Positions 2,590-34,296 of a stretch of DNA of 34,987 nucleotides are shown here, piece by piece. Source of the stretch: an uncultured Gammaproteobacteria bacterium (GTDB taxonomy: Bacteria; Patescibacteriota; Patescibacteriia; JACQRZ01). The notes beneath the pieces were generated by a model. The model did no database searches. It saw only the letters and a list, made by a program, of their open reading frames with translations, and had not been told where the DNA came from. The stretch is from the NCBI GenBank assembly GCA_964370875.1, contig CAYJLM010000002.1:1-34987 (forward strand), in the 5' to 3' direction. A program made the translations under genes and the position numbers. Each line of letters opens with the position of its first letter. Position 1 is the stretch's first letter.

Positions 2590-4661
2590 ATAATATGAAT
2601 CACAATCGGGAAATAGGGGGACCATTTCGCCAGCCGGATCCGGATGGAGATATGGTAGCCGAAGAAAGCGGTAGCCCTGTAAAAGAAAAGGAAATCGCAC
2701 CAGATCCGATTTCCGAGCTGACAAAAGAAATTACGGCACTATCGGAGGAATATGCTGAAGGCGAGTTGAGCGCTGTTGCATACGTCGATCGGGTCGTGCC
2801 GCTCTTTGCGCGTCGAGAGGATCGCATTCGTCATCACCATCCAAAAAACAGTGATGTCGTGAAGAATGTGTTTGCCGCGAAAACACCCCGGTTGTCCGCG
2901 ATTCTCCATGATTTTAATTTCGGAGATATCGTTGATACGCAGCATCCGCTGAACGCAATGAGCGATGATGTGAAAAAAGCGAAATCGGCTGTTACTGCCG
3001 TTGTTGGCTATCGTTTTGCGTACCGACCCTTTTTATATGCGATGACTCTTTGTAAGTCGTCCAGATCATGGGATAAAACCGTGAGAGGAGAACCCACACT
3101 TCAGTATAATAGAGAAGACATGAGAATTCGCGAGGAATTTTGGCACGAAATTGTATCACTGCAGGAAACACTGGGCGTTTCCGATTTTAATAAACGCGCC
3201 GGACTCGCAGCACTTATTCTCCTGACGGATACCGCACAGAGGAAAATGATTCAAGATGTCCACGATCTTCTCGCAAAGCCCGGAAGCGTCATGACTCGCG
3301 CTGAAGAGGATTTTTGGGAGCACTATTTGATTGGAAAACCGCGTAATGAAGGGATCGCATTTTGCCGCAATTATGTTGTGGATGCTGATGAAAAAATGAA
3401 AGGCGCGGCGAACGATATATACGGAGCAATCGGAGATCGAGTTGTTAGGGCATGGAGCGATCTTCTTGCTCAATTCTATACATGTGGTGATTCCCAACAA
3501 GAAAAAGACGCATTTTTATCGGTGTTACGGTATGCGGGCGAGCAACTTTTAGCGGGAAAAATTCAATTGGCGGAACGCGCAATGCAAAAGTATTCCCGAC
3601 GGGAGGTTGCGCATTTTACTCCGCAGATCGTCAAAGAAGAGTCTGAAAAAAAAGCCACCACTGAAATACAAGAAAATACGCAAGCGACAGAAAAAGAAGC
3701 CCTTGAGTTTCTAGAAAAATATAAGGGGCATCTCTTGCTCAATCTTGAATCAATCAAGCGAAAAGATAACTTTGATTTTTTGACTATAACGATCAACGAC
3801 GAAACGCAAGAACTCATTGTGTTTAATGTTCGGATTGGAAAGACTCACGGTGCGGAGAGTCAGATCGGTAGCGGGTTGAGCATTTCTCGGTTTAGTGGTC
3901 GCCGTATGGTACCTGCAAATTTTATGAAGCGGATTCGGTTTGGAAATGAGTATTACCGCGATAGGGTACATGCGCAAACGCAACAACCAGGTGAGGCCAT
4001 CGGCGGGAAGCAACAGATATCGTCGCGACTAGTTCAGGCGAGCGGCGCGCTTTTTGATATTGGCGCTGTTGAAGCGCTTTCCCGCGGGCACATACTGATG
4101 GCGGCGAGAGATTTTTTTAAGAGTGATGCCGCGCGTGCGTTAGTCGGTGATGCTCAGGATGAAATTGTCAGGAATATAGAAACACTTTCGCTTCCTTTCG
4201 AGGGTATAAGTGCTGTTGACAAGCAAATGACAAGAGCAACAAGAAGTGAGCATGAGATGAAGGCGCTTGAGCACATTCTTACCCTCCATCACCATGTTTT
4301 TATTCGGCCGATAAAGAAGAGACATATCGAAAACCTGTCGTCAGATATTATTGTGATACAGATTCTCGGTGTCGTATCAGAAGAGGATTTCAAAAAAAGC
4401 GATCGTAAAAGTCATGCGCAAGCTACCGCCAACGGAATTGAACATCCGGTTCTCCTTACTCGCCGCTATTCGTTTTCTTACAATGGAGAACTTATTCAGA
4501 ACATGGTTGCGGGCACATCGTCATTTGCGCGCTTTGAAGAAGAAATAGAAGCGGAAGGTACGATGGATATGGGGAAATATGACGAGGTAACGACGACGGT
4601 GGTGCGCCGTCTTCGTGACGAATACAAAACGCAACTCAAAGAAAAAGAATCGGAAAAATGA
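2586..4661 (+). CDS. hypothetical protein, 691 aa, no domain recognised
   Basis: Longest ORF in the interval. ATGA start/stop overlap with xseB. Acidic/lysine-rich termini. I could not identify any catalytic motif. Confidence 0.7.
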   Translation: MNNMNHNREIGGPFRQPDPDGDMVAEESGSPVKEKEIAPDPISELTKEITALSEEYAEGELSAVAYVDRVVPLFARREDRIRHHHPKNSDVVKNVFAAKTPRLSAILHDFNFGDIVDTQHPLNAMSDDVKKAKSAVTAVVGYRFAYRPFLYAMTLCKSSRSWDKTVRGEPTLQYNREDMRIREEFWHEIVSLQETLGVSDFNKRAGLAALILLTDTAQRKMIQDVHDLLAKPGSVMTRAEEDFWEHYLIGKPRNEGIAFCRNYVVDADEKMKGAANDIYGAIGDRVVRAWSDLLAQFYTCGDSQQEKDAFLSVLRYAGEQLLAGKIQLAERAMQKYSRREVAHFTPQIVKEESEKKATTEIQENTQATEKEALEFLEKYKGHLLLNLESIKRKDNFDFLTITINDETQELIVFNVRIGKTHGAESQIGSGLSISRFSGRRMVPANFMKRIRFGNEYYRDRVHAQTQQPGEAIGGKQQISSRLVQASGALFDIGAVEALSRGHILMAARDFFKSDAARALVGDAQDEIVRNIETLSLPFEGISAVDKQMTRATRSEHEMKALEHILTLHHHVFIRPIKKRHIENLSSDIIVIQILGVVSEEDFKKSDRKSHAQATANGIEHPVLLTRRYSFSYNGELIQNMVAGTSSFARFEEEIEAEGTMDMGKYDEVTTTVVRRLRDEYKTQLKEKESEK

Positions 4662-5673: not shown

Positions 5674-5793
5674 AAGACAAACGTAGTTGAGTGCAATTCT
5701 AGGCGCCGGCGAGGATCGGAGTAAAACGTATACAGTATACGTTGTCGAGAACCGGAGCTGGTAACAACGAAATGCGCCAACTACGTTTGTCTT
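5674..5793 (-). repeat. palindromic structured element, subfamily 1, copy a
   Basis: 15-bp closing stem 5674-5688 / 5779-5793. Central hairpin aacgtata-cag-tatacgtt (5725-5743). The 90-nt core 5689-5778 aligns without gaps to 28908-28997 as reverse complement (73/90 identical). Confidence 0.85.
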
Positions 5794-7487
5794 TATGCTA
5801 GTATTTTTACCATATATGTGTCTTCAAGTCCATACCCAAGCTTCGCATAGTATTCGCGCACCCCTATGCCGGCAATGACCGCCATTTTGGTATATCCTGC
5901 ATCCTTGGCGATTATTTCAGCTCGCTCCATGAGCTTTCTCCCTAATCCCTTGTGTTGCGAGGCGCTGGAATCTTTTTCGTTAATAGTAACGAGCTGTCCG
6001 TACGTGTGTAGTTCTCGGATGAGCGCGGCACCACGGAGTTCTTCGAAATGGTCAACGATGGGATTATCTACGGAGGAGGGGAATCGCAGGCGCAGGAACG
6101 CAAACAAGACAGACTCATCCTCACTTTCGTAGCTCAAAAAATACTCAATTCCCCCCGATGCGCTATATGTCCTCTCCTTGTAATAAGGAGCACCTATATG
6201 CTGAGCATTAGACTCAAGAACGTGCCCAACCTCTCTGCAACGCAAGCACCGACATACGAGCCCATGCTCTTCCATGTATTCCCGCACGGTTTGCCGTAGG
6301 TTTGTCACCTTACTTCCGTGTGAAATTTCTTGCGACGGAAAATCTCGAATGATGCGTGCGATACGCATAGTGGGTGGCACGAGCGCTTTGATCTGGGCGA
6401 GAAGGGGAACAAGCTGTTCGGTGGTGTAGGGCGTATAGCGGCCATCGCGCACCCATTCCTCAAGCTCTGTTGTGGGCGTGACAATACAGGGATAGAGCTT
6501 AATCGTATCGGGCTGGAAATCGCTTTGGGAAAAAATACGCTGCGCATCGCGCACATCACTCTCCGGGGTCGCGCCGGGTAATCCCTGCATAAGATGATAG
6601 TCCACTTTGAGTCCCGCATCCTTCAGAAGGCGGGTCGCATAAATTGAAGCGCCCGTGAGGTGTCCGCGTTTGATGCGTTTTAGAATCGTGTCATCGGGTG
6701 ATTGCACCCCCAGCTCAACCCGCGTGACCCCCAGGTCGCGCAAGCGCTTGATTTCCTGAACGCTGATCCAGTCGGGTCGCGTTTCTATTGTCAGTCCGAT
6801 ACAGCGATGGACGGCTGTTTCATTGATGCTCTGCTGTTCAAAAAGTTTTTCACTCCGCCATTCGTTTTTTTCCGTACCTAAAAAACGACTGAACGGTGAG
6901 TCAGGAGAAGGGGGCGGCATATCGCGCGCGGGACCTCCGACATCGTTCATTGCGCGGAAACACTCAGCGATAAACCACTGCTGGTAGTCGACAGGGTAAG
7001 ACGACCATGTTCCACCCTTGATAATCAGTTCAATCTTGTCGGCAGGATGGCCGTTGCGTTCTAGGATTTCAATGCGCCGGCGTGTTTGGGTATACGGATC
7101 AAACTGTAATGTGAGCGCCCGTGCCGCTGCCGGTTCGGTCGCGATATAGCTTTTGGGCATGCGTTCCTCAGTGGGACAGTAGACGCATTTTCCCGGACAC
7201 GGATGAGGCATGGTTAGAAGCGTAACGATTGCCACACCGGATTTTGACCGGATTGGTTTTACGTGAAGCGCTGTTTCAAGCGCCTTATTTTTTGGAGTGG
7301 CGTTCTTGCTCCGCAGGGCGTTATAGGTGTCGCGGATATCGTTGTGCTGGAAGAGCCCCGTACTTTTTCCCTTTGCCGCCTTTTTTTTGAGTTGGTGCAG
7401 AAGGAGGGGGGTTATATTGTCAGAAAGGGCTAATTCGTGTATAATTGAATCAGGAGCAGGATTGGTGCTTATGCCTGTTTTTTGCAT
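5793..7487 (-). CDS. elp3: Elp3-family radical SAM / GNAT acetyltransferase
   Basis: Cys cluster CPGKCVYCP, radical-SAM barrel, and C-terminal GNAT motif QHKGLGRKLMERAE. ATG 7487 (MQKTGIS...) preferred, because the 42 upstream codons are element sequence. Confidence 0.8.
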   Translation of the reverse strand: MQKTGISTNPAPDSIIHELALSDNITPLLLHQLKKKAAKGKSTGLFQHNDIRDTYNALRSKNATPKNKALETALHVKPIRSKSGVAIVTLLTMPHPCPGKCVYCPTEERMPKSYIATEPAAARALTLQFDPYTQTRRRIEILERNGHPADKIELIIKGGTWSSYPVDYQQWFIAECFRAMNDVGGPARDMPPPSPDSPFSRFLGTEKNEWRSEKLFEQQSINETAVHRCIGLTIETRPDWISVQEIKRLRDLGVTRVELGVQSPDDTILKRIKRGHLTGASIYATRLLKDAGLKVDYHLMQGLPGATPESDVRDAQRIFSQSDFQPDTIKLYPCIVTPTTELEEWVRDGRYTPYTTEQLVPLLAQIKALVPPTMRIARIIRDFPSQEISHGSKVTNLRQTVREYMEEHGLVCRCLRCREVGHVLESNAQHIGAPYYKERTYSASGGIEYFLSYESEDESVLFAFLRLRFPSSVDNPIVDHFEELRGAALIRELHTYGQLVTINEKDSSASQHKGLGRKLMERAEIIAKDAGYTKMAVIAGIGVREYYAKLGYGLEDTYMVKILA

Positions 7488-7496
7488 AGTTTTTTG

Positions 7497-7630
7497 ATTT
7501 ACGAAACTTGTTATGTTCGGACATTTCTTCCTCGGGGCCGGATATTTTTCTGCTGAAAAATTCCTTAAACTCAGACCGTCGTCCTCCGTATGCCCCTGTG
7601 GAGAAACGTCCAAACATAAGTTTCGTAATT
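7497..7630 (+). repeat. palindromic structured element, subfamily 2, copy a
   Basis: Closing stem 7497-7509 / 7618-7630 plus 7513-7517 / 7613-7617. P2 tttcttc (7524-7530) / ggagaaa (7600-7606). The 68-nt core 7535-7602 is 64/68 identical to 18193-18260. Confidence 0.9.
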
Positions 7631-7643
7631 CCTAAGCAGATCC

Positions 7644-8513
7644 ATGAATCCTGAAACAGCAAAACACATACTGCAATTGACTCAGGATGGCTATGTGCGA
7701 ATAGCCAGATATTTTGATAAAACTCGCAATACAATCTGGGAGGATTTTAGCATTTTCAAGGCCTCTGTCAAAGATGGATCTCGTGTTTTGGATGTTGGAT
7801 GCGGGAATGGGCGACTGTATGCGGCACTGAAAGATAAGAATGTGATGTATGTCGGAGTCGATCAGAACCCGTACTTAATAGAGCAGGCGCAAGAGCGTTA
7901 TCCGCAAGCGAGGTTCATTACCGGAGACATTCTTTCCCTCGACACCATTTCCGGTATTGCCGGCGAGACATTCGATGTTATTTTTTCTGTCGCAGTTCTG
8001 TGCCATATCCCTTCAACGGAATTGCGTCAGCGTGTTCTAGTAGCCATGCGTTCATTGCTGGTTCGTGATGGTCTACTCATGATGCTGAATTGGAATCTGT
8101 GGCGTATTGCCTTCAAGCATAAAAGCATTTGGAAAAATCTTCATCAGCGGTTGACACTGAGTCCGCTGACATGGAAAGAGATGTATGCAGCCTCGGAGAG
8201 AGATATGGGGTTTCGCGATGTCATGACGTGGTGGGGCACGCATATCAATGGCACGCCGCTGTATTATCGTGCATTTTCTGTCGGAGAATTGCGTGCATTG
8301 TGCCGAGATGTCGGGTTTAGCGACATCTCGTGTTTTTATACGATGAAAGGTAAAAGGGCACACTGGTGGAACGGAAGAAATCTTGCGCTTATTACGCGCA
8401 ACACACTTGTATCTGTTCCTGTAAAGGAGCGAAAAAAGTCCGCAGTACCCTTGAATCAAATGTCTTACGCATCTATTCCAAAAATTGAGATTGGTGAAAA
8501 TAGCTCATCATGA
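7644..8513 (+). CDS. class I SAM-dependent methyltransferase
   Basis: Motif I VLDVGCGNGRL, followed by the usual acidic loop and motif II spacing. Confidence 0.8.
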   Translation: MNPETAKHILQLTQDGYVRIARYFDKTRNTIWEDFSIFKASVKDGSRVLDVGCGNGRLYAALKDKNVMYVGVDQNPYLIEQAQERYPQARFITGDILSLDTISGIAGETFDVIFSVAVLCHIPSTELRQRVLVAMRSLLVRDGLLMMLNWNLWRIAFKHKSIWKNLHQRLTLSPLTWKEMYAASERDMGFRDVMTWWGTHINGTPLYYRAFSVGELRALCRDVGFSDISCFYTMKGKRAHWWNGRNLALITRNTLVSVPVKERKKSAVPLNQMSYASIPKIEIGENSSS

Positions 8514-9397: not shown

Positions 9398-11347
9398 ATG
9401 CATAGATTCCATCTCAAATCACACCTTCAGCCGGCAGGCGATCAGCCGCAAGCCATCCAGAAACTCACGGATGGCTTTGCTCGTTTTCCACAACAAACAC
9501 TTCTCGGCATTACCGGATCGGGAAAAACATACACTGCCGCAAAGGTGATTCAGGACATTCAGGTGCCGACACTCGTTTTGACGCACAACAAAACATTAGC
9601 CGCACAGCTATACAACGAGTTTAAGAGTTTTTTTCCGGATAATAGGGTCTGCTATTTTGTTTCATACTACGACTACTACCAGCCGGAAAGCTATTTGCCA
9701 AAATCAGATACCTATATAGAAAAGGAGACGCAGATCAATCAGAAGATCGATCAGCTTCGACTCGAGGCGATGTCCGCACTCGCTACGCGCAAAGACACGA
9801 TTGTGGTTGCCTCTGTCTCCTGTATCTATGCTTTGGGCAACCCCGCCAATTTCATGGCAGGCATGACGACCGTAAAGACGGGACAAGAGACATCGCGGAA
9901 GGCATTTTTGGAAAACCTTATAGACATGCTCTATCAGCGCAATGATGTGGAGCTTGTGGCCGGTCGGTTCCGCGTGCGTGGTGATGTTGTCGATGTGATT
10001 CAGGGGTTTGGCGGTGATATTATCCGATTTGAATTTTTTGGCAGACAGATAGAAAAAATCTCGCGTCTCCATCCAATATCTCTGGAAGTTGAAGAAGTGT
10101 TATCAGATGTTATTCTCTTTCCTGCGCGGCCCTTTGTGACACCCGAGGAACAGCGATTGCGTGCCCTCGATACAATCCGTGAGGAGCTGGCAGAACGACT
10201 CAAGGAACTCCCGATGTTAGAGGCCCATCGTCTTGAACAGCGCACGAATTATGACCTTGAGATGATTGAGCAGATTGGAACATGTAAGTCAATCGAAAAC
10301 TACTCGCGCCACTTCGATGGGCGCGCGCCGGGAGAGCCGCCGTTTTGTCTCATCGATTATTTCGCTCAGAGCCCGTTTTCAAAAGAATTTCTGATGATGA
10401 TTGACGAGAGTCATGTGTCGGTACCGCAAGTGCGGGGTATGTATCATGGCGATCGCACGCGCAAAAAGAATCTCATTGATTTTGGATTTCGGCTTCCATC
10501 AGCGTATGATAATAGGCCGCTGAAGTTTGCGGAGTTTGAAAAATATCTTACCCATGCACTGTACGTGAGCGCAACACCCGGCGAGTACGAGCGTGAACAC
10601 AGCAGTCAGATTGTTGAGCAAGTAGTGCGACCGACAGGGCTTCTCGATCCCGAGATTACGATTAAGCCAATCAAGCATTGTATTGAGGACTTGAAAAATG
10701 AAATTAATGCATGTGTCAAAGACGGGGATCGCGTGCTGGTGACCACGCTCACCAAGCGGTCCGCCGAAGAGCTTGCCGAGTATCTTACGTTGCATGATAT
10801 CAAGGCGCGTTACTTGCACAGCGAAATTGATACGATAGAGAGGACAAAGCTACTCAAAGATTTGCGCCGGGGGGTATTTGACGTCATGGTGGGAATTAAC
10901 CTGTTGCGCGAAGGGCTTGATTTGCCCGAGGTGGCGCTCGTGGCGATTCTCGATGCCGACAAGGAAGGATTTTTGCGCAATGCAACAAGCTTGATTCAGA
11001 CCATCGGTCGCGCCGCGCGCAATCTCCGAGGTCGTGTTATTTTATACGCCGACAAACAAACGGATTCAATACAGCACGCGGTGGATGAGACGAAGCGAAG
11101 GCGCAAGATTCAGACCGCATTCAACAAAAAACACGGCATCACTCCAAAGAGCATTGAAAAAGCGATCATGGAGGAGCTGGTTCCCGGAGAAATAGCCGCA
11201 GTCATGAAGGGTATCCCAACACATGATCAGATAATCGTGTTGCAGGAGGAGCTCCAGGCGGCAGTGGAACGGCTTGATTTTGAGAAAGCAATCGTTATTC
11301 GCGATACGCTGGCAAAGCTCGAGAAGAATGCGCGGAAGGGAAGGTAG
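9398..11347 (+). CDS. uvrB: excinuclease ABC subunit B
   Basis: Walker A GITGSGKT, DESH box (MIDESHVS), helicase motifs, and a C-terminal UVR domain (LEKAIVIRD-like FEKAIVIRDTLAKL). Confidence 0.95.
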   Translation: MHRFHLKSHLQPAGDQPQAIQKLTDGFARFPQQTLLGITGSGKTYTAAKVIQDIQVPTLVLTHNKTLAAQLYNEFKSFFPDNRVCYFVSYYDYYQPESYLPKSDTYIEKETQINQKIDQLRLEAMSALATRKDTIVVASVSCIYALGNPANFMAGMTTVKTGQETSRKAFLENLIDMLYQRNDVELVAGRFRVRGDVVDVIQGFGGDIIRFEFFGRQIEKISRLHPISLEVEEVLSDVILFPARPFVTPEEQRLRALDTIREELAERLKELPMLEAHRLEQRTNYDLEMIEQIGTCKSIENYSRHFDGRAPGEPPFCLIDYFAQSPFSKEFLMMIDESHVSVPQVRGMYHGDRTRKKNLIDFGFRLPSAYDNRPLKFAEFEKYLTHALYVSATPGEYEREHSSQIVEQVVRPTGLLDPEITIKPIKHCIEDLKNEINACVKDGDRVLVTTLTKRSAEELAEYLTLHDIKARYLHSEIDTIERTKLLKDLRRGVFDVMVGINLLREGLDLPEVALVAILDADKEGFLRNATSLIQTIGRAARNLRGRVILYADKQTDSIQHAVDETKRRRKIQTAFNKKHGITPKSIEKAIMEELVPGEIAAVMKGIPTHDQIIVLQEELQAAVERLDFEKAIVIRDTLAKLEKNARKGR

Positions 11348-11421
11348 GTGTCATCCCGAACAACGTGAGGAATCTCGCCGCAGTAATATGTCCGCAGAAT
11401 GGGGGGTATCCATTTTTGCGG

Positions 11422-11497
11422 GAACAGGTAGAGACTCCTTTTTTGCAACAGGGCACACTTCGTTCAAAGGTTGCCAAAAAGGAATCTCCACCTGTTC
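11422..11497 (+). repeat. 76-nt near-perfect hairpin (H1)
   Basis: Stems 11422-11429 / 11490-11497, 11431-11443 / 11476-11488 (one C/A mismatch) and 11445-11449 / 11470-11474. 20-nt loop containing gcacacttcgttcaaag. Confidence 0.8.
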
Positions 11498-11525
11498 AGT
11501 CGTGCGAAACGTGAATAGTTCGTTG

Positions 11526-11603
11526 CAGGGCAGGGATGTCCTTTTTGCGGTGACTTTAACCGAAGGTGTGCATCGGGAGCCGCAAGGGGGCATCCCTGCC
11601 CTG
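11526..11603 (-). repeat. 78-nt hairpin (H2), inverted homologue of H1
   Basis: 13-bp perfect stem 11526-11538 / 11591-11603. An 11-bp stem 11540-11550 / 11580-11590 with three G:T pairs. The reverse complement of the apex, gcacaccttcggttaaag, matches the H1 loop. Confidence 0.8.
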
Positions 11604-11614
11604 GATGTCGAATC

Positions 11615-11693
11615 GTTGTCATTTTGTGGGTTTTAGGGTAGTATGTGTATCGTTGCACGCGTCGAGTAGGAGAATTTTGCAATGGATGACAAC
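11615..11693 (-). repeat. 79-nt hairpin (H3), degenerate subfamily-1-like element
   Basis: 8-bp closing stem gttgtcat (11615-11622) / atgacaac (11686-11693). On the minus strand, ctcctactcgac...aacgatacacatac resembles the subfamily-1 core ctccggtactcgacaacgtaca. Confidence 0.5.
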
Positions 11694-11893
11694 CACCGGT
11701 CGACCGCTAGAGTATGTCTTAGCGGTAAGGGCAAACAGGTGAAAATCCTGCAGTCCACGACCGAACAACAGTGGCAAGATTTCCGGCAACACGAAAAGGA
11801 AAGGGTGGCACAAAAGCCGTCAGAGAGGAGGGCAACGAGAAGAAATAGCTCGTTTTTTGCGCCAGGGCTGGTCTCGATTGATCGGCCCTGGGC
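11694..11893 (+). other. structured non-coding leader upstream of uvrA, unclassified
   Basis: Hairpins accgcta / tagcggt (11703-11726) and cagg-tgaaaat-cctg (11736-11750). Weak terminator-like aacgag-N9-ctcgtt followed by tttt (11834-11858). Stem ccagggc / gccctgg (11862-11891) ends 2 nt before the uvrA ATG. Confidence 0.4.
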
Positions 11894-14695
11894 ATGCTTA
11901 CACAATCTATGGAAAAAGAACACATTATCATCAAAGGCGCACGGCAGCACAATCTCAAAAATATCGATGTTGAGATTCCAATCAATTCGCTGACCGTCAT
12001 CACGGGGCTTTCCGGAAGCGGGAAGTCGTCTTTGGCGTTTGATACGTTGTATGCGGAAGGGCAGCGCAGATACGTGGAGAGCTTGTCGGCATACGCGCGG
12101 CAGTTTTTGGGTGTTATGAATAAGCCCGATGTCGACTCTATCAAAGGCCTGAGTCCGGCTGTTGCGATACAGCAGAAAAAGATGTCGGCAAATCCTCGTT
12201 CGACCGTGGCGACTGTGACGGAAATTTATGACTATCTCCGCTTGCTCTATGCGCGTATTGGCGTTCCGCATTGTCCCAAGTGTGGCGCGCGCATTTCGCA
12301 TCAGGACGCGCAGTCGATTACCAAGCAAATTATCGGGAACTATCACGGCAAGCGCATTACGATACTTGCCCCGCTTGTTCGCGCGAAAAAAGGAACGTAT
12401 GACTATTTATTCACCGACCTGAAGAAGCAGGGATTTACTCGCGTACGCGTTGATGGCGTGCTGTATAATCTCGGGACGGAAAATATATTATTGAAGCGAT
12501 ATGTCCAGCATACCATTGAAGTGGTTGTAGACAGATTTGAGGCATCTGAGGAAGAAAAGTCCCGTATTCAGGAATCGATTGAAAAAGGTCTTCAGCATGG
12601 AAGTGGGTTCGTTGTTGTGCTGGCAGAAAAGCGTGAGGCGGGCACCGCGCTAGGCACCGAATCAAAGAAGTACGATGAAAAGTTTTTTAGCCAGCATCTC
12701 GCGTGCGTTCATTGCGGGATTAGTTTCGACGAGCTTCAGCCGAGGAATTTTTCATTCAACGCCCCGCAAGGCGCGTGTCCGGAATGCCACGGTCTTGGTG
12801 TTATCGAGGAGTTTGACGAGGATCTGATTATCCCTGATCCAAACCGATCTATTTTGCGAGGCGGTATCGCACCGTGGACAACAACGGCGTTGTGGATGCG
12901 CGACAGCGCGCTTTCAGCACTCGCGAAGCACTATCATTTCAATCTCGACACGCCGATCAATAATCTTCCGCGGCCGGTCATACGCATGTTGCTTGAAGGC
13001 GATCCGGAAGTGGGATACGAGGGTATTGTTCCTCAGCTAAAACGGTACTACCACAAAACTGGATCCGAAGAGCGCAGGGCAGAGATTGGAAAATTTTTAC
13101 GGCCAACCACGTGTCCATCATGCAATGGCAATCGACTCAAAAAAGAGAGCATGGCCGTGACCGTGGGTGCAAAAAATATCATGGAGCTGACGGGTTTATC
13201 TCTGCAGGATGCGTTGGATTTTTTTACTACTCTCGACCTGTCAGAAAAAGAAAAGAAAATCGCCAATCTTATCATCAAAGAGATTCGCGCGCGCGTCCTT
13301 TTTCTCGTGAACGTCGGCTTGGAATATCTGACATTATCGCGGAGTGCAGGGTCGCTTTCCGGCGGTGAGGCACAGCGTATTCATCTTGCGACGCAGATTG
13401 GATCCGAGCTGCGCGGTGTCATGTATATTCTCGATGAGCCATCTATCGGCTTGCATCAGAGGGATAACAAAAAGCTGATTGAGACGCTGAAAAATCTGCG
13501 CGATATCGGGAATACGGTGATTGTTGTAGAGCACGATGAGGAGACCATGCTTGCGTCCGATCATATTATTGATATTGGGCCGGGTGCGGGTTTGCACGGG
13601 GGAAATGTGATCTTTTCGGGCACGCCCGCAAAAATGATGACGGCAAAGAATTCATTGACAGGCCAGTACTTGTCGGGAAAGAAAACAATTCCTGTTCCGG
13701 ACAAGCGTCGGCCGGCCCGCGGGTTTCTCACGCTCACCGGAGCCAGTGAGCACAATTTGAAAAATATCGAGGTAAAATTTCCATTGTCGGTACTTGCGTG
13801 TATTACAGGTGTATCGGGGAGCGGAAAAAGCACGCTTGTCACAGAAACGCTCTATCCGATTTTGGCAAAGACATTTTTTGGATCGACCGATATCCCGGGG
13901 GCGCATAAAAAAATAGACGGAGTCAGCTATCTTGATAAGGTAATTATCATCGATCAGAACCCAATCGGTCGGACACCGCGGTCAAACCCCGCCACTTACA
14001 CCGGCATCTTTACGTATATCCGCGAGCTCTTTACGGCTACAAAAGAGGCGCGTATGCGCGGGTATGCCCCGGGACGATTTAGTTTCAATGTTGCGGAAGG
14101 GCGCTGTGGCAATTGCGACGGCGATGGATTGATAAAAATAGAAATGCATTTTCTTCCCGACGTGTATATTCCCTGCGAAGTATGCAGCGGCAAACGCTAC
14201 GACGATGAAAAAAACATCGCCGATATTTTGGCAATGACCGTGGAGGAGGCGGTGCAGTTTTTTGCGCCTGTCCCGAGGGTAAAGAATAAATTGCAGACCC
14301 TGCTGGACGTGGGGCTCGGATATATCGAACTGGGACAGTCAGCAACCACGCTCTCCGGTGGTGAAGCCCAGCGCATTAAGCTTGCCACAGAGCTATCGCG
14401 CCGTGATACCGGCAGAACACTGTACATTCTTGATGAGCCGACAACAGGACTCCATTTTGAAGATATCAAGAAACTGCTCGGGGTGCTGAACCGACTCGTA
14501 GACAAACAAAATTCCGTATTGGTTATTGAGCACAATCTTGATGTGATAAAAACAGCTGACTATATTATCGACCTTGGGCCTGAAGGAGGGGAGAAGGGTG
14601 GCCATATCGTTGCACAAGGCACGCCGGAGGAGGTCGCGAAAGTCACCGGCAGCTACACGGGGCAGTACCTTAAGAAAATACTTAAAAAAAGTTGA
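11894..14695 (+). CDS. uvrA: excinuclease ABC subunit A
   Basis: Two ABC modules (GLSGSGKSS and GVSGSGKST Walker A; two LSGGE signatures), zinc-finger Cys pairs, N-terminal [12 protein letters not shown]. Confidence 0.95.
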
Positions 14696-14727
14696 AGCCC
14701 GGCAAACCAAGGTGGTAGCGGGCTTCG
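14684..14727 (-). terminator. intrinsic terminator for the minus-strand mini-gene pair (the hairpin also follows the uvrA stop)
   Basis: Stem gaagcccg (14695-14702) / cgggcttc (14720-14727). On the minus strand it is followed by aacttttttt. Confidence 0.55.
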
Positions 14728-14755
14728 AACGGCGGTAGGGACAGGCTGGGCATGG

Positions 14756-14857
14756 TTACGGCAGGGCTCCATTCCGGAGGATATAGATCCCAACGGCAAC
14801 CGCTAGGCAACATCCAATACCGATGAAGATTCCGGCCACCCTATCTTTCCATCGCAT
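14756..14857 (-). CDS. 33-aa single-pass membrane peptide (MRWKDRVAGIFIGIGCCLAVAVGIYILRNGALP)
   Basis: Below the ORF-track cutoff; read by hand. GGAGG lies 11 nt upstream of the ATG at 14857, stop TAA 14756-14758. Paralogous to the next gene (shared GIF...GIY.LR). Confidence 0.55.
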   Translation of the reverse strand: MRWKDRVAGIFIGIGCCLAVAVGIYILRNGALP

Positions 14858-14896
14858 TTTGAAATGCACCTCCTGTAAGATATGTACAAGACATGG

Positions 14897-14923
14897 TTGA
14901 AAATGTCAAATTGAGGGTATAAT
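14897..14923 (+). promoter_or_regulatory. sigma70-like promoter candidate for uvrC
   Basis: ttgaaa (14897-14902), 15-nt spacer, perfect tataat (14918-14923). About 240 nt upstream of the uvrC ATG, so the leader would run antisense through 14977-15123. Confidence 0.4.
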
Positions 14924-14976
14924 ACCAAAGCCCCCGGTCGACGCAGTGCGCGACGCGAGGGCTTCAAGTGGCAGAG

Positions 14977-15123
14977 TCAGGGGAGAAACGGAAGCCGAAA
15001 CGTCGGCCAGACGCTTCGGAGAACAGCGTAGATCCCAATCGCTGCGATGGGAACGAATATGCCCCACCACAGTATCTTGAGCATCCGCGCATTCCTCTTC
15101 TCCCTGAATTCATCAGCGTTCAT
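14977..15123 (-). CDS. 48-aa single-pass membrane peptide (MNADEFREKRNARMLKILWWGIFVPIAAIGIYAVLRSVWPTFRLPFLP)
   Basis: AAGGAGG lies 5 nt upstream of the ATG at 15123. One hydrophobic helix. Minus-strand promoter-like TTGACA (15165-15170 rc), 16 nt, TAGGAT (15143-15148 rc). Confidence 0.6.
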   Translation of the reverse strand: MNADEFREKRNARMLKILWWGIFVPIAAIGIYAVLRSVWPTFRLPFLP

Positions 15124-15163
15124 TGCTTCCTCCTTGCATACAATCCTAATTATTTTTTCATTC

Positions 15164-16729
15164 ATGTCAAACAGATCGCTTGCGCAATCACTCCCAACAT
15201 CTCCCGGCTGCTATCTTATGAAAGATGAGAAAGCGGACGTTATTTACATTGGCAAGGCAAAAAATATACGCAAACGCGTGAACACATATTGGCATGCGCG
15301 CGATGAGAAAACAGTCGCACTGGTATCGGAAATTGCAGACATCGAGACTATTGTGACCGACACCGAGGAAGAAGCTCTGATTCTGGAGGCGCAACTAATT
15401 CAAGCGCATCACCCAAAGTATAATATTGACTTGCAGTCGCCGGGGAGATACGCGTTTATAAAACTGACCCGTGAAGAGTATTCGAGATTTATGATCGCGA
15501 GAAAAGTTACGAGCGACGGAACATTCTTTGGTCCCTTTCCCTCAGCTGCCGCGCGCAATCAGATGCTCAGGAGCGTAAACTCATTATTCCAGCTTTGTTC
15601 TGTAAAACGAAGCAAGAAACCATGCTTTCGCTATCACCTGGGCCACTGTGTTGGCGCGTGCGCAGGGTTGGTATCGAAAGAAGAACATCAAAAATCAATC
15701 AAGTCAGCCATCAAGTTTTTGCGCGGGGATTTCGTGCTATTGATTAAGGAGACAAGAGAGCTCATGAACGGTGCTGCACGGGAGCATCATTACGAGAAGG
15801 CAAAAATTTATCGCGATCGGCTCCTTGCGCTACAAAAACGTGAAGAGCAAAAGGTATCACAGCCGAAGCGATTTGATCAGGATATCATACATTATATTCT
15901 TCTTGACTCGCAGATCATTGTGCAGCTTTTTCATTTTGATCGTGGGATTATCTCGGGGCGTAAGGAATTCAGTTTTGACCGAGATACGCTTCTAGCAGTA
16001 ACGGTCGCGGAGATCTTGCGGGATTTTCTTCTAAGCTATTACGCACATCGCAGTGCGCCGAGGGAAATAATTATTCCGCACGCCATTCCGGACCATGACT
16101 TACTCGAGTCAACGTTTGCCAAGACAAGCGGGCATCGTGTAGAAATCATCGTTCCTCAAAAAGGGAAAAAGAAAAAACTACTTGATCTGGTGAAAAAGAA
16201 TCTTTTGGAAAAGTTGGGAAGCGGCGGCGGGCAACTGACAGAGCTCCAAAAGTATGTACGGCTGTCATCAGTGCCTCGTATTATCGACTGTATTGATATT
16301 TCCCATCTGGGGGGCACGCAAACAGTCGGATCGCTCGTGCAGATGATAAATGGTCAGCTTGCGAGAGGGGGCTATCGGAAATTTATTATAAAAAGCGTCG
16401 ATGGAATTAATGACTTTGCATCGATTCGTGAAGTTGTTACGCGTTTTGGAAAAAGGATACAAGAAGGGAAAGAAGTGAAGCCCGACCTTTTGATCATCGA
16501 CGGCGGGAAGGGACAGCTCAATAGCGCACTCAAGGCGCTCCGTGAGCTGGGTTTGGATATTCCAACGGTTGGACTGGCAAAGCGTCTTGAAGAATTGTTT
16601 TTGCCTGGCATAAAAACGTCTGTGATACTGCCGCGAAAGAGTAACGCCTTGCAACTCATTCAAGCATTGCGCGATGAAGCGCATCGTTTTGCGATTACGT
16701 TTCAAAGAAAACGAAGAAAGAATGTATAG
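15164..16729 (+). CDS. uvrC: excinuclease ABC subunit C
   Basis: GIY-YIG start (PGCYLMKDEKADVIYIGKAKNIRKRV), UVR domain, C-terminal endonuclease and HhH region. The internal ATG 15164 restores the canonical N-terminus. Confidence 0.9.
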   Translation: MSNRSLAQSLPTSPGCYLMKDEKADVIYIGKAKNIRKRVNTYWHARDEKTVALVSEIADIETIVTDTEEEALILEAQLIQAHHPKYNIDLQSPGRYAFIKLTREEYSRFMIARKVTSDGTFFGPFPSAAARNQMLRSVNSLFQLCSVKRSKKPCFRYHLGHCVGACAGLVSKEEHQKSIKSAIKFLRGDFVLLIKETRELMNGAAREHHYEKAKIYRDRLLALQKREEQKVSQPKRFDQDIIHYILLDSQIIVQLFHFDRGIISGRKEFSFDRDTLLAVTVAEILRDFLLSYYAHRSAPREIIIPHAIPDHDLLESTFAKTSGHRVEIIVPQKGKKKKLLDLVKKNLLEKLGSGGGQLTELQKYVRLSSVPRIIDCIDISHLGGTQTVGSLVQMINGQLARGGYRKFIIKSVDGINDFASIREVVTRFGKRIQEGKEVKPDLLIIDGGKGQLNSALKALRELGLDIPTVGLAKRLEELFLPGIKTSVILPRKSNALQLIQALRDEAHRFAITFQRKRRKNV

Positions 16730-17412: not shown

Positions 17413-18519
17413 ATGAATTTCTGGAAAAAGCTGAAAAAACCAATACGGTGCCTCGCGCCGATGGCAGATGTCACCGACGCGGCTTTTCGCCGTATTATTG
17501 CGAAATATGGGAAACCCGACGTCATGTGGACGGAATTTGTGTCTGTGGATGGTCTCTGTTCTATCGGACGCGAAAAGCTGCTGCCCGATCTTTGGTACAC
17601 ACAAGCCGAGCGACCTATTGTCGCGCAGATTTTCGGATGCAATCCTGAGAATTTCTATAAAGCCGCCCTCCTCATCAAAGAACTGGGATTTGACGGAATC
17701 GACATCAATATGGGGTGTCCGATGAAAAATATCGAACACCAGCACGCGGGAGCGACACTCATGAAGGATCCGCAGCTCGCCGTAAAGATTGTTCAGGAAA
17801 CAAAACGCGGCGCCGGCAAACTTCCCGTTTCAGTCAAAACGCGTCTTGGGTATAACAAGGTTATGATCGAAGAATGGATTTTGCCGCTGCTTGATGCGGA
17901 ACCTGCTGCATTGACGATCCATGCTCGTACGCGGAAAGAGATGTCAAAGGTTCCGGCGCACTGGGATATTCTCGGCGATGTTGTTGAAAAAATACACGCG
18001 CAGTATACGACCAGTAGAAACCGACCGATTATCATTGGCAACGGTGACGTAAAAGACATGGATGATGCGTATGATAAAGTAAAACAGTACGGCGTTGACG
18101 GAGTGATGCTGGGGCGGGCGATATTTGGGAACCCATGGTTGTTTGCGCATCCACCAATTGCGAAGCATTCCCCCTCGGGTACTTGTTCCTCAGGGCCGGA
18201 TATTTTTCTGCTGAAAAATTCCTTAAACTCAGGCCGTCGCCTTCCGTATGCCCCTGCGGACAAGAACCCGAGGGAGAGCTTCGCAATTCTCGGTACCCAT
18301 GTTCCGTCGCAAGAAGAAAAAATGTCTGTTCTGCTCGAACATACAAGTGTTTTTGACCAGCTCTTTGCCGGAATCAAAAACTTTGATATTATGAAAAAAC
18401 ATTATAAGGCATATGTATCCGGTTTTGACGGCGCCAAAGAGCTGCGCGTACAGCTTATGGCGTGCAAGACCGCGCAAGAAATTTCCAAAATTATTCATAA
18501 AGAATTTCCGTCACTATGA
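17413..18519 (+). CDS. dus: tRNA-dihydrouridine synthase carrying an in-frame element insertion of about 45 codons
   Basis: LAPMADVTDAAFR, DINMGCP, VSVKTRLG and GNGDV motifs. C-terminal helical domain KKHYKAYVSGFDGAKELRVQL. An extra segment follows GNPWLF. Confidence 0.9.
   Translation: MNFWKKLKKPIRCLAPMADVTDAAFRRIIAKYGKPDVMWTEFVSVDGLCSIGREKLLPDLWYTQAERPIVAQIFGCNPENFYKAALLIKELGFDGIDINMGCPMKNIEHQHAGATLMKDPQLAVKIVQETKRGAGKLPVSVKTRLGYNKVMIEEWILPLLDAEPAALTIHARTRKEMSKVPAHWDILGDVVEKIHAQYTTSRNRPIIIGNGDVKDMDDAYDKVKQYGVDGVMLGRAIFGNPWLFAHPPIAKHSPSGTCSSGPDIFLLKNSLNSGRRLPYAPADKNPRESFAILGTHVPSQEEKMSVLLEHTSVFDQLFAGIKNFDIMKKHYKAYVSGFDGAKELRVQLMACKTAQEISKIIHKEFPSL
18156..18288 (+). repeat. palindromic structured element, subfamily 2, copy b, inside dus
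   Basis: Arms 18156-18166 / 18278-18288 (11 bp) and 18172-18180 / 18266-18274 (9 bp). P2 cttgttc (18182-18188) / ggacaag (18258-18264). Core 18193-18260 is 64/68 identical to 7535-7602. Confidence 0.9.
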
Positions 18520-28892: not shown

Positions 28893-29012
28893 ATGACTTC
28901 CGCGTTTGGCACATTTCTTCGTTGCCAACTCCGGTACTCGACAACGTACATTGTGTACGCCTTACTCCGTTCCTCATTGGCGCCTAGAACTGCGCTCAAA
29001 CGCAAAAGTCAT
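28893..29012 (+). repeat. palindromic structured element, subfamily 1, copy b
   Basis: 15-bp closing stem 28893-28907 / 28998-29012 (two C/A mismatches on plus, equal to G:U on minus). Central hairpin cgtaca-ttg-tgtacg (28945-28959). Core 28908-28997 is 73/90 identical to the reverse complement of 5689-5778. Confidence 0.85.
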
Positions 29013-29039
29013 CAGCGCAACGAACATATTACTTAATCT

Positions 29040-33805: not shown

Positions 33806-33852
33806 ATTAAAGGATGTCATCCCCGTGAAGGCGGGGATCCTGCAGTTCAATT

Positions 33853-34296
33853 ATGAAATTAAACATCATTACACCTGAGAAGATCGTCTTTTCAGAAGAT
33901 GTCGACCAGGTAACAATCCCCACCCAGGATGGTGAGATTACGGTATTGCCGCATCACATTCCGTTGGTCGGGCTTCTCAAGGCAGGCGAGCTTTTGATTA
34001 AAATGGGTGCGTCTGTTATCCCAATGGCTGTGTCGGGCGGTATTCTGCAAGTACGCGTAGACGGCGTGACGATCTTGGCAGATACGGCCGAGCGTGTTGA
34101 AGAAATTATTGAGGAGCGCGCCGAGGAAGCGCGCAAGCGTGCAGAGCAGGTATTGGCGGAGAAGAAATTCGACACGGAAGAATACGCGACGATTGCCGCC
34201 AAGCTGGAGAAAGAGCTTGCCCGCCTGCATGTCGCGCGCAAGTGGAAGCACAAAGCGCATGGGCCAACAGGGCATAGTATACAATCTGACAGCTAG
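33853..34296 (+). CDS. atpC: F0F1 ATP synthase subunit epsilon
   Basis: Beta-sandwich N-terminus (ITPEKIVFSEDVDQVTIPTQDGEITVLPHH) followed by a helical C-terminus. Confidence 0.85.
   Translation: MKLNIITPEKIVFSEDVDQVTIPTQDGEITVLPHHIPLVGLLKAGELLIKMGASVIPMAVSGGILQVRVDGVTILADTAERVEEIIEERAEEARKRAEQVLAEKKFDTEEYATIAAKLEKELARLHVARKWKHKAHGPTGHSIQSDS

Follow-up and report, generated by a model that had tools for sequence, protein, structure and literature searches.

Palindromic hairpins of the uvrB-uvrA spacer belong to a dispersed, strand-constrained repeat family in Candidatus Uhrbacteria

The DNA analyzed here is a 34,987-nt bacterial stretch (contig CAYJLM010000002.1; hereafter the window) that encodes UvrB, UvrA and UvrC, each of which matches its NCBIfam equivalog. 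The gap between uvrB and uvrA is 546 nt when measured from 11347 to the start of the listed uvrA open reading frame (ORF) at 11894, as the original prediction had stated, and 561 nt when counted from the conserved ATG at 11909. We found that three hairpins in this spacer, termed H0, H1 and H2, are members of one dispersed palindromic family, with copies elsewhere in the same genome and in its relatives. These hairpins are probably selfish, non-autonomous palindromic repeats of Candidatus Uhrbacteria, comparable to Rickettsia palindromic elements (RPEs) or to the miniature transposable elements with inverted repeats known as MITEs, and would be passengers at this locus. The region had been proposed to be a nest of truncated family members; the nest held for H0, H1 and H2, but truncation did not, because only H0 is a stump, and a further proposed hairpin, H3 (11615-11693), was not a member and consists of a promoter, a leader and the ATG that opens a small ORF.

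The small hairpin H0 folded with a z-score of -4.0. H1 has 28-nt arms that are 89% complementary, and its RNA fold reached z = -6.6 for the plus strand and -8.65 for the minus strand; H2 has a 16-nt outer arm (94% complementary) plus an inner stem, with z = -8.3 and -5.25 on the plus and minus strands, respectively. Direct reading and alignments bore out the reported match between the H1 loop and the reverse complement of the H2 apex, as well as the correspondence of the flanking segments (CAAAAAGGA/TCCTTTTT, and also TCCTTTTTG/CAAAAAGGA). The two hairpins are separated by 28 nt, and neither is followed by a T run on its 3' side (AGTCGTG after H1, GATGTCG after H2). H0 is identical at 14 of 14 nt to the arm end of a hairpin that lies at the same position behind the uvrB stop codon in the related contig L088, where a full copy (6682-6766) occupies the site of H0. 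An orthologue of H1 in L090 (7465-7539) had changed on both sides at seven arm positions. Rfam gave no match in the window at the gathering score, and at the E-value threshold H1 and H2 produced only sub-threshold, generic matches to miRNA precursors. Three strongly folding coding stretches (1540-1720, 8170-8310 and 34110-34250) were considered as hidden copies and were not significant against shuffles.

Family units of 57-85 nt were found in at least seven copies at matching depth in this genome, with more in five relatives, and occurred in both orientations. The apex TCTCCCGATGCACACCTTCGGTTAAAGTCAC, or its complement, recurred with different arms at three further places, in L118, L098 and L091. 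Among the nine matches of a metagenome scan with an 18-mer of the apex, only L098 was a true member; the remaining eight were chance matches without a hairpin, and a gapped apex pattern gave 14 chance matches in viral contigs, none of them embedded in a hairpin. When Logan contigs from four runs (X1-X4) were placed on the spacer, the 31-mer at 11549-11579 formed a separate repeat node whose depth relative to the H2 contig was about twofold in X1, X2 and X3 and roughly 1.5-fold in X4. Other Logan contigs, whose depths tracked this genome in all four samples, carried at least two further H2-type copies and at least two further H1-type copies, the latter matching 11438-11485, and each of these copies had its own self-complementary flanks. 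The repeat status of the 31-mer shows why assemblies break there. Elsewhere, an apparent polymorphism at 3682-3748 relative to L004 was merely an N-gap in the scaffold.

The proposed scan with a covariance model was carried out with a model (R1) built from seven members (alignment A4), and it recovered new family members in the relatives L086 and L087. R1 scored each member 20-60 bits higher on one strand, namely 75.2 bits on the minus strand versus 37.1 bits on the plus strand for H1, and 83.1 bits on the plus strand versus 22.5 bits on the minus strand for H2. The copy in the uvrC gene of L087 coincides with a clean in-frame insertion of 27 aa that is absent from four orthologues. The copy in the dus gene of L086 is situated in the variable linker of Dus, and the same linker holds a copy of another repeat, D1, in the window.

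Alignment of the members revealed a family apex of about 30 nt that is conserved in sequence and carries a C-GAA-G mini-hairpin, flanked by arms of about 25 bp. In all subfamilies, the apical mini-hairpin consists of a pyrimidine run, C-GAA-G and a purine run, its stem covaries (CC/GG, CCC/GGG, GAC/GTC, TCTC/GAGA and AC/GT), and a 5' apex motif, G(Y)GA(Y)TT, is common to them (alignment A7). In the long stem, 89% of the cells were paired, compared with about 50% in slid controls, and 18 of 29 pairs had changed on both sides; none of 500 shuffles reached the observed pairing and covariation. The two L086 copies have apices identical over 37 nt and arms that are about 41% alike in a position-by-position hand count. 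The H2-type apex was identical over 29-32 nt in the window, L088 and L098, and at 31 of 33 positions in L091, at evolutionary distances where the four-fold degenerate sites of uvrB were 47-55% identical (L091, L088) or saturated at 35-39% (L086, L090, L092). The arms of the L098 and L118 copies differed at 9 of 26 positions, all but two of which were still paired in L118 (the exceptions being one C.A and one T.G). Some arm differences were blockwise and simultaneously compensated, as in an 11-nt block distinguishing these two copies, which is the expected product of replication template switching within inverted repeats. An inner apex stem (CCGA/UCGG) with a k-turn-like GA/AG internal loop was also considered, and its support was inconsistent across subfamilies. 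C-GNA-G is the core of a very stable DNA mini-hairpin (PMC13037366); this stability fits nucleation of a single-stranded DNA fold and is no proof of it.

In each of the six imperfect copies of the initial set, the strand that carries the GAA of the apex (GAA strand) had a fold 5-12 kcal/mol better than that of its complement, and the advantage was also present in four later-found copies and under DNA parameters. Transition mismatches in the stems, read on the GAA strand, comprised 22 G.U versus 2 A.C (p = 3.6e-5). The ratio was 8:0 in L086a, L086b and L087u, although this is not a fully independent test, since the model that recovered these three copies had been oriented on the GAA strand beforehand. 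In the spacer itself, as had been noted, the plus strand of H2 shows three T.G pairs in a row, and the A.C/C.A mismatches of H1 on the plus strand become wobbles on the minus strand. H1 and H2 thus bear the GAA-strand asymmetry on opposite chromosome strands, which rules out a genome-strand mutation bias and indicates that the signature follows the element. The GAA strand was antisense to the local transcription unit in 6 of 10 oriented copies, including both intragenic ones (uvrC and dus). What is constrained is therefore most likely a single-stranded form present during spread, not the local mRNA.

The suggested comparison of the spacer across relatives was made with contigs encoding UvrB proteins 76-94% identical to that of the window, and the orthologous site held no copy, one copy or different copies (Table 1). 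In L090 the copy is perfectly palindromic over 27 bp, with a loop that has diverged from that of H1. This pattern implies that the hairpins were gained and lost independently, that H0 is a stump and that the site is a hot spot. Directly upstream of uvrA, L090 (~7845-7890) and L092 (~5880-5945) contain tandem 7-8-nt repeats (CCCTAAN-like and CCTGAMA-like, respectively), which the window does not have.

Table 1 Features of the uvrB-uvrA spacer, further family copies and orthologous sites in relatives. L numbers denote compared contigs; identities are of UvrB to the window UvrB.
Feature	Sequence	Position	Strand	Description
uvrB	window	9398-11347	+	NCBIfam NF003673, 934.9 bits; stop codon is upstream edge of spacer
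Second small palindromic repeat	window	11348-11377		Degenerate copy GTCATCCC...GGAATCTCG; same position behind the uvrB stop in L088 and L090
H0	window	11392-11421		Leftover single arm of a family copy; self-closing via CCGCA/TGCGG
H1	window	11422-11497	- (GAA strand)	Complete family copy; 22+5-bp stem
H1 apex	window	11450-11469	-	AC-GAA-GT mini-hairpin
H2	window	11526-11603	+ (GAA strand)	Complete family copy, inverted relative to H1
H2 apex GGTGACTTTAACCGAAGGTGTGCATCGGGAG	window	11549-11579	+	CC-GAA-GG mini-hairpin; sequence-conserved family core
Promoter, sigma-70 type	window	11616-11644	+	TTGTCA-17 nt-TAGTAT; promoter scan; 5' half of H3
Shine-Dalgarno and small ORF	window	11668-11848	+	AGGAG at 11668-11672; ORF from ATG 11682
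Terminator-like hairpin	window	11834-11859	+	Short hairpin plus T run; missed by terminator scan
Hairpin CCAGGGCTGGTC/GATCGGCCCTGG	window	11862-11891	+	Just upstream of uvrA; missed by terminator scan
uvrA	window	11909-14695	+	NCBIfam NF001503, 1412 bits; conserved start ATG 11909, listed ORF begins at 11894
Family copy	L118	5283-5366		Same genome, 9 kb upstream of window; RRM-tgt spacer
Family copy	L098	8155-8237		Relative, from metagenome scan; same RRM-tgt spacer
Family copy	L091	4626-4699		cmk-elp3 spacer
Family copy	L086	15342-15423		uvrA-uvrC spacer; R1 match
Family copy	L086	17788-17869		Inside dus; R1 match
Family copy	L087	15829-15892		Inside uvrC; R1 match
Orthologous spacer	L091			94%; no hairpin, 33 nt from uvrB stop to promoter
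Orthologous spacer	L088	6682-6766		94%; one 85-nt hairpin, H0-type arm
Apex of that hairpin	L088			29 nt identical to H2 apex, orientation opposite to H2
Orthologous spacer	L090/L089	7465-7539		88%; H1 orthologue only
Orthologous spacer	L092			85%; different family member, 57 nt, directly behind uvrB stop
Orthologous spacer	L086	12077-12409		86%; unrelated 110-aa ORF, no Pfam match; without small ORF and hairpins
Orthologous spacer	L087			76%; spacer only 64 nt
Orthologous spacer	L093			78%; spacer only 77 nt

H3, which had been read as a third long hairpin, did not fold beyond expectation: its free energy of -17.2 kcal/mol corresponded to z = -1.0, 37 of 200 shuffles folded equally well, and the orthologous stretches in L088 and L090 had z-scores above +1. 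It is instead a conserved promoter, 5' leader and start codon of a small ORF. The promoter is conserved in an alignment with four relatives (L088, L090, L091 and L092), and the 5' arm of H3 contains the -35 region, upstream of the predicted transcription start, so that this arm would lie outside a transcript made from the promoter. Orthologues of the small ORF (55-73 aa) were called as genes in the same four relatives, and their proteins share an (R/K)V.LS.KGK.V segment, a W..F motif and an acidic, lysine-rich tail and have no Pfam family match. In the window, the reading frame of the small ORF misses the conserved stop codon (TAG, 11846-11848) and continues to 11993, overlapping the start of uvrA; this frameshift may be real or an assembly error. 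The two hairpins at 11834-11859 and 11862-11891 are likewise conserved in these four relatives.

In the reading that we favor, copies of a selfish palindromic repeat would have accumulated in a permissive gap that extends from the uvrB stop codon to the promoter of the small ORF and uvrA. Spread would proceed via a single-stranded form of the GAA strand, most likely single-stranded DNA, with an RNA intermediate as the alternative, and recognition by some enzyme would involve the apex sequence together with any paired stem, a requirement that would explain the free drift of the arms. Template switching during replication inside the inverted repeat could help to keep the arms complementary, since it is known to homogenize inverted-repeat arms and maintain hairpins (PMC8794818, PMC8604942). 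In transcripts reading through from uvrB, the 3' region would include very stable ~25-bp hairpins that lack U tracts, and we conjecture, by analogy with repetitive extragenic palindromic (REP), enterobacterial repetitive intergenic consensus (ERIC) and Correia elements, that H1 and H2 might block 3' exonucleases or be cut by RNase III in uvrB mRNA. Several observations weigh against selfish repeats. The sequences available provided 11 full copies, and contig ends in Logan graphs form part of the basis for the copy number. No transposase or other mobilizing gene was found in the 35-kb window or its 9-kb extension (~45 kb of the genome), and no target-site duplication, direct repeat or shared flanking motif at nine copies, nor was there a pair of filled and empty sites similar enough to define the ends of the element. 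Conservation of the apex above that of synonymous sites, together with near-perfect stems (27 of 27 pairs in L090), is also the pattern that functional, structured RNA or DNA would show.

The strongest competitor, which we nevertheless regard as unlikely, is a functional structured RNA family (small RNAs or cis-acting 3'-untranslated-region modules), in which the long stem would offer the invariant ~30-nt loop to a partner, either protein or RNA, and selection would keep both pairing and apex. The stem covariation, the 22:2 tolerance of G.U on one strand only and an apex identical over 29-32 nt in genomes that are half to fully saturated at synonymous sites all agree with such a role, as do the pairing kept despite many arm changes at the RRM-tgt (L098/L118) and post-uvrB (window/L090) sites and the sense orientation, downstream of a gene, of four intergenic copies (H2, L118H, L098H and L091H). 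However, the antisense orientation of the GAA strand in 6 of 10 oriented copies, including those in uvrC and dus, argues against it; the units have no promoter or terminator of their own and no Rfam match, the orthologous site has no copy in a genome with a 94% identical UvrB, copies nest beside a truncated copy, and in-frame insertion in essential genes is typical of selfish DNA. Selfish palindromic repeats remain our preferred explanation. A role as terminators or attenuators of uvrB, possibly independent of U tracts and insulating uvrB from the downstream promoter, appears improbable. The hairpins do lie directly 3' of the uvrB stop codon and 5' of a promoter, and several copies in relatives are also found behind stop codons, but H1 and H2 have no T run, a scan of 11300-11950 found no terminator, a canonical U-tract terminator exists in the RRM-tgt spacer about 100 nt from the L098 and L118 copies, L091 (UvrB 94%) has no hairpin at this site, and copies occur inside ORFs and in both orientations.

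The earlier suggestion that the whole spacer is a single large multi-hairpin non-coding RNA is very improbable. The spacer as a whole folded far better than shuffles (z = -9.5 for the 546 nt), but this signal stems from H0, H1, H2 and the 11862-11891 hairpin, with H3 at chance level; each hairpin was present or absent independently among genomes with 85-94% identical UvrB, and the 3' half of the spacer comprises the promoter and the conserved small ORF. Least probable of all is that H1, H2 and H3 form a stem-loop guide-RNA array of the tandem interspaced guide RNA (TIGR) type or a bridge-RNA-like unit, in which palindromic stems vary, the loops hold guide segments and the reader is a Nop-domain (Tas) or IS110-type protein. 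TIGR stems are variable yet consistently palindromic, and the systems occur in parasitic bacteria and phages, with Patescibacteria mentioned (PMC12045711); the hairpins here also stand back to back. Yet the loops are conserved between copies and are not variable spacers, the copies are dispersed singly and form no regular array, H3 is not a hairpin, and Pfam was blank for the unannotated window proteins, with no Nop/Tas or IS110 protein in the precomputed gene tables.

Genomes of the candidate phyla radiation (CPR)/Patescibacteria are tiny and dense and are usually called poor in mobile DNA. The present family occupies intergenic gaps and is inserted in frame in uvrC and dus, and a second small repeat is inserted likewise in uvrB. 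Its architecture, with a conserved apex and arms that are free in sequence but paired, is unusual, and the conserved apex, paired arms and one-strand wobble together point to recognition of a folded single strand. We found no description of palindromic elements of CPR in the open-access literature. We tentatively put forward, as a possibility rather than an expectation, that the family represents an undescribed strand-specific CPR hairpin element whose ~30-nt apex, with a C-GAA-G mini-hairpin as its nucleus, is read by sequence and whose 25-bp stem is read only as a helix. If so, an enzyme or partner recognizing the apex plus any stem on one single strand would be implied, either as single-stranded DNA mobilization by a new structure-reading recombinase or HUH enzyme, or as a conserved hairpin RNA with a cellular role; under either route the element would be able to colonize essential genes in frame. 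For the locus itself, the analysis accounts for the over-long spacer and reveals an unannotated small gene and promoter before uvrA.

Regarding the source of the DNA, the closest public UvrB proteins carry the name Candidatus Uhrbacteria (Patescibacteria/CPR), and DNA identical to the window was present in several sediment-metagenome assemblies and runs. A UvrB scan of the GTDB genome set gave a best identity of 57% and no closer species representative. The conserved start of uvrA was chosen from the N-termini of orthologues. Near the 3' end of uvrA (~14600-14700), a 24-nt indel, seen against L001, distinguishes the window from otherwise 99.9% identical assemblies, and UvrA has 933 aa in the window versus 936-941 aa in those near-identical assemblies. 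The uvrA-uvrC spacer (14696-15242) is also long and contains two small hydrophobic minus-strand ORFs (14756-14869, 37 aa, and 14977-15165 or shorter), both with a GIF..I.....GIY.LR-like segment and resembling small membrane peptides, as well as a promoter-like site (15170-15143) and a terminator-like hairpin (15019-14995). Farther away, the IleRS proteins of L098 (4413-7370) and L118 (1480-4455) are 53% identical and the adjoining Tgt proteins 83%; comparison of these sequences suggests that ileS has been exchanged or is fast-evolving.

Other palindromic repeats were observed in the same genomes. Subfamily 1 (5680-5795 on the minus strand and 28895-29015 on the plus strand) is a rod-like palindrome of about 120 nt whose copies are 82% identical over 94 nt and differ in their compensated outer stems; folding is better by 11-18 kcal/mol on one strand, and the copy at 28895-29015 lies between atpE and atpF. 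The resemblance of H1 and H3 to subfamily 1 in the original prediction was not significant overall: H1 gave p ~0.016 with copy S1A before multiple testing and p = 0.32 with S1B, comparisons of H0, H2 and H3 all gave p above 0.1, and BLAST found no cross-matches. At the cmk-elp3 site, subfamily 1 is present in the window and an H2-type element in L091; in L086, L089 and L090 the site is empty. The D1 palindromic repeat is found at 7480-7620 and 18150-18285 in the window, at 4628-4715 in L089 and at 2814-2901 in L090, with cores 92-95% identical between copies and their own compensated outer stems (TTACGAAAC/GTTTCGTAA vs TTGCGAAGC/GCTTCGCAA). The copy at 18150-18285 is inside the dus ORF (17413-18519), where it is read in frame in the variable Dus linker, and the D1 minus strand folds 8-11 kcal/mol better at both window copies; a relation between D1 and the hairpin family was not significant. 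The second small palindromic repeat has the intact form GTCATCCCCG-N5-7-CGGGGATCC, with copies in the window (33816-33840), L090 (7417-7442), L098 (8275-8299), L118 (5366-5390) and L087 (10703-10727, 17386-17410 and 20256-20281), and often adjoins long hairpin elements. One of the L087 copies coincides with a 16-aa in-frame insertion (VIPAEAGIQSLENGDS) in UvrB, and the two others lie within the dus and metG ORFs.

We compared the family with known systems. Like classical MITEs, it is small (57-85 nt), multi-copy and dispersed, but the inverted repeats within each copy are not sequence-conserved between copies, and the outer columns of alignment A4 vary. In Correia elements, 26-bp terminal inverted repeats are conserved and occur with TA duplications and an integration host factor (IHF) site, and ERIC sequences are conserved along their whole length, whereas neither conserved termini nor duplications were seen here. 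ERIC and Correia (Neisseria miniature insertion sequence, NEMIS) elements are imperfect palindromes of 100-150 bp. They are co-transcribed with their neighbors, and the resulting long RNA hairpins are cut by RNase III or alter mRNA stability, Correia/ERIC hairpins being substrates of RNase III/E (PMC10969869). By analogy, uvrB read-through transcripts may be affected in a similar manner.

REP sequences, including bacterial interspersed mosaic elements (BIMEs) and REPINs, are extragenic palindromes downstream of genes and often occur as inverted neighbors, like H1 and H2. Their mobilization by REP-associated tyrosine transposases (RAYTs; HUH enzymes, IS200/IS605-like) is thought to use one DNA strand folded as a hairpin and leaves no target-site duplication; no RAYT (Y1 HUH transposase) gene was found in the window. 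REPs measure 20-40 nt, and both their stem and a 5' GTAG-type tetranucleotide are conserved, whereas the stems here are about 25 bp and variable, the loop is conserved, and no tetranucleotide is common to the 5' flanks of nine copies. Integron attC sites resemble the family in that the fold of one DNA strand, and not the stem sequence, defines the recombination substrate; stems differ widely among sites, and function is strand-specific. However, attC sites have conserved R/L boxes at the stem base and variable centers and flank gene cassettes beside an integron integrase, whereas the center of the present family is conserved, its base is not, and neither cassettes nor an integrase were present. 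TIGR-Tas systems share hairpins with variable, always palindromic stems in the genomes of parasitic bacteria (PMC12045711). They differ in forming regular arrays beside a Nop-domain gene, with variable loop spacers and box C/D motifs, whereas the loops of this family are invariant, its copies are dispersed, and the gene tables contain no Tas gene.

The family also resembles RPEs, as judged by description. RPEs are about 100-150 bp long and are described as conserved families that encode a conserved peptide, and their hosts are Alphaproteobacteria, a lineage unrelated to CPR; the present units measure 57-85 nt, retain sequence only in the apex and reside in CPR. In both cases, short hairpin-forming palindromes for which no transposase is known are dispersed in a reduced genome, in intergenic gaps and in frame in housekeeping genes that are left intact, here uvrC of L087 and dus of L086. 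RPEs insert in frame in Rickettsia genes (PMC10969869), and the parallel between these two kinds of reduced genome suggests that, in genomes of this type, proteins and spacers generally gain variation from palindromic insertions.

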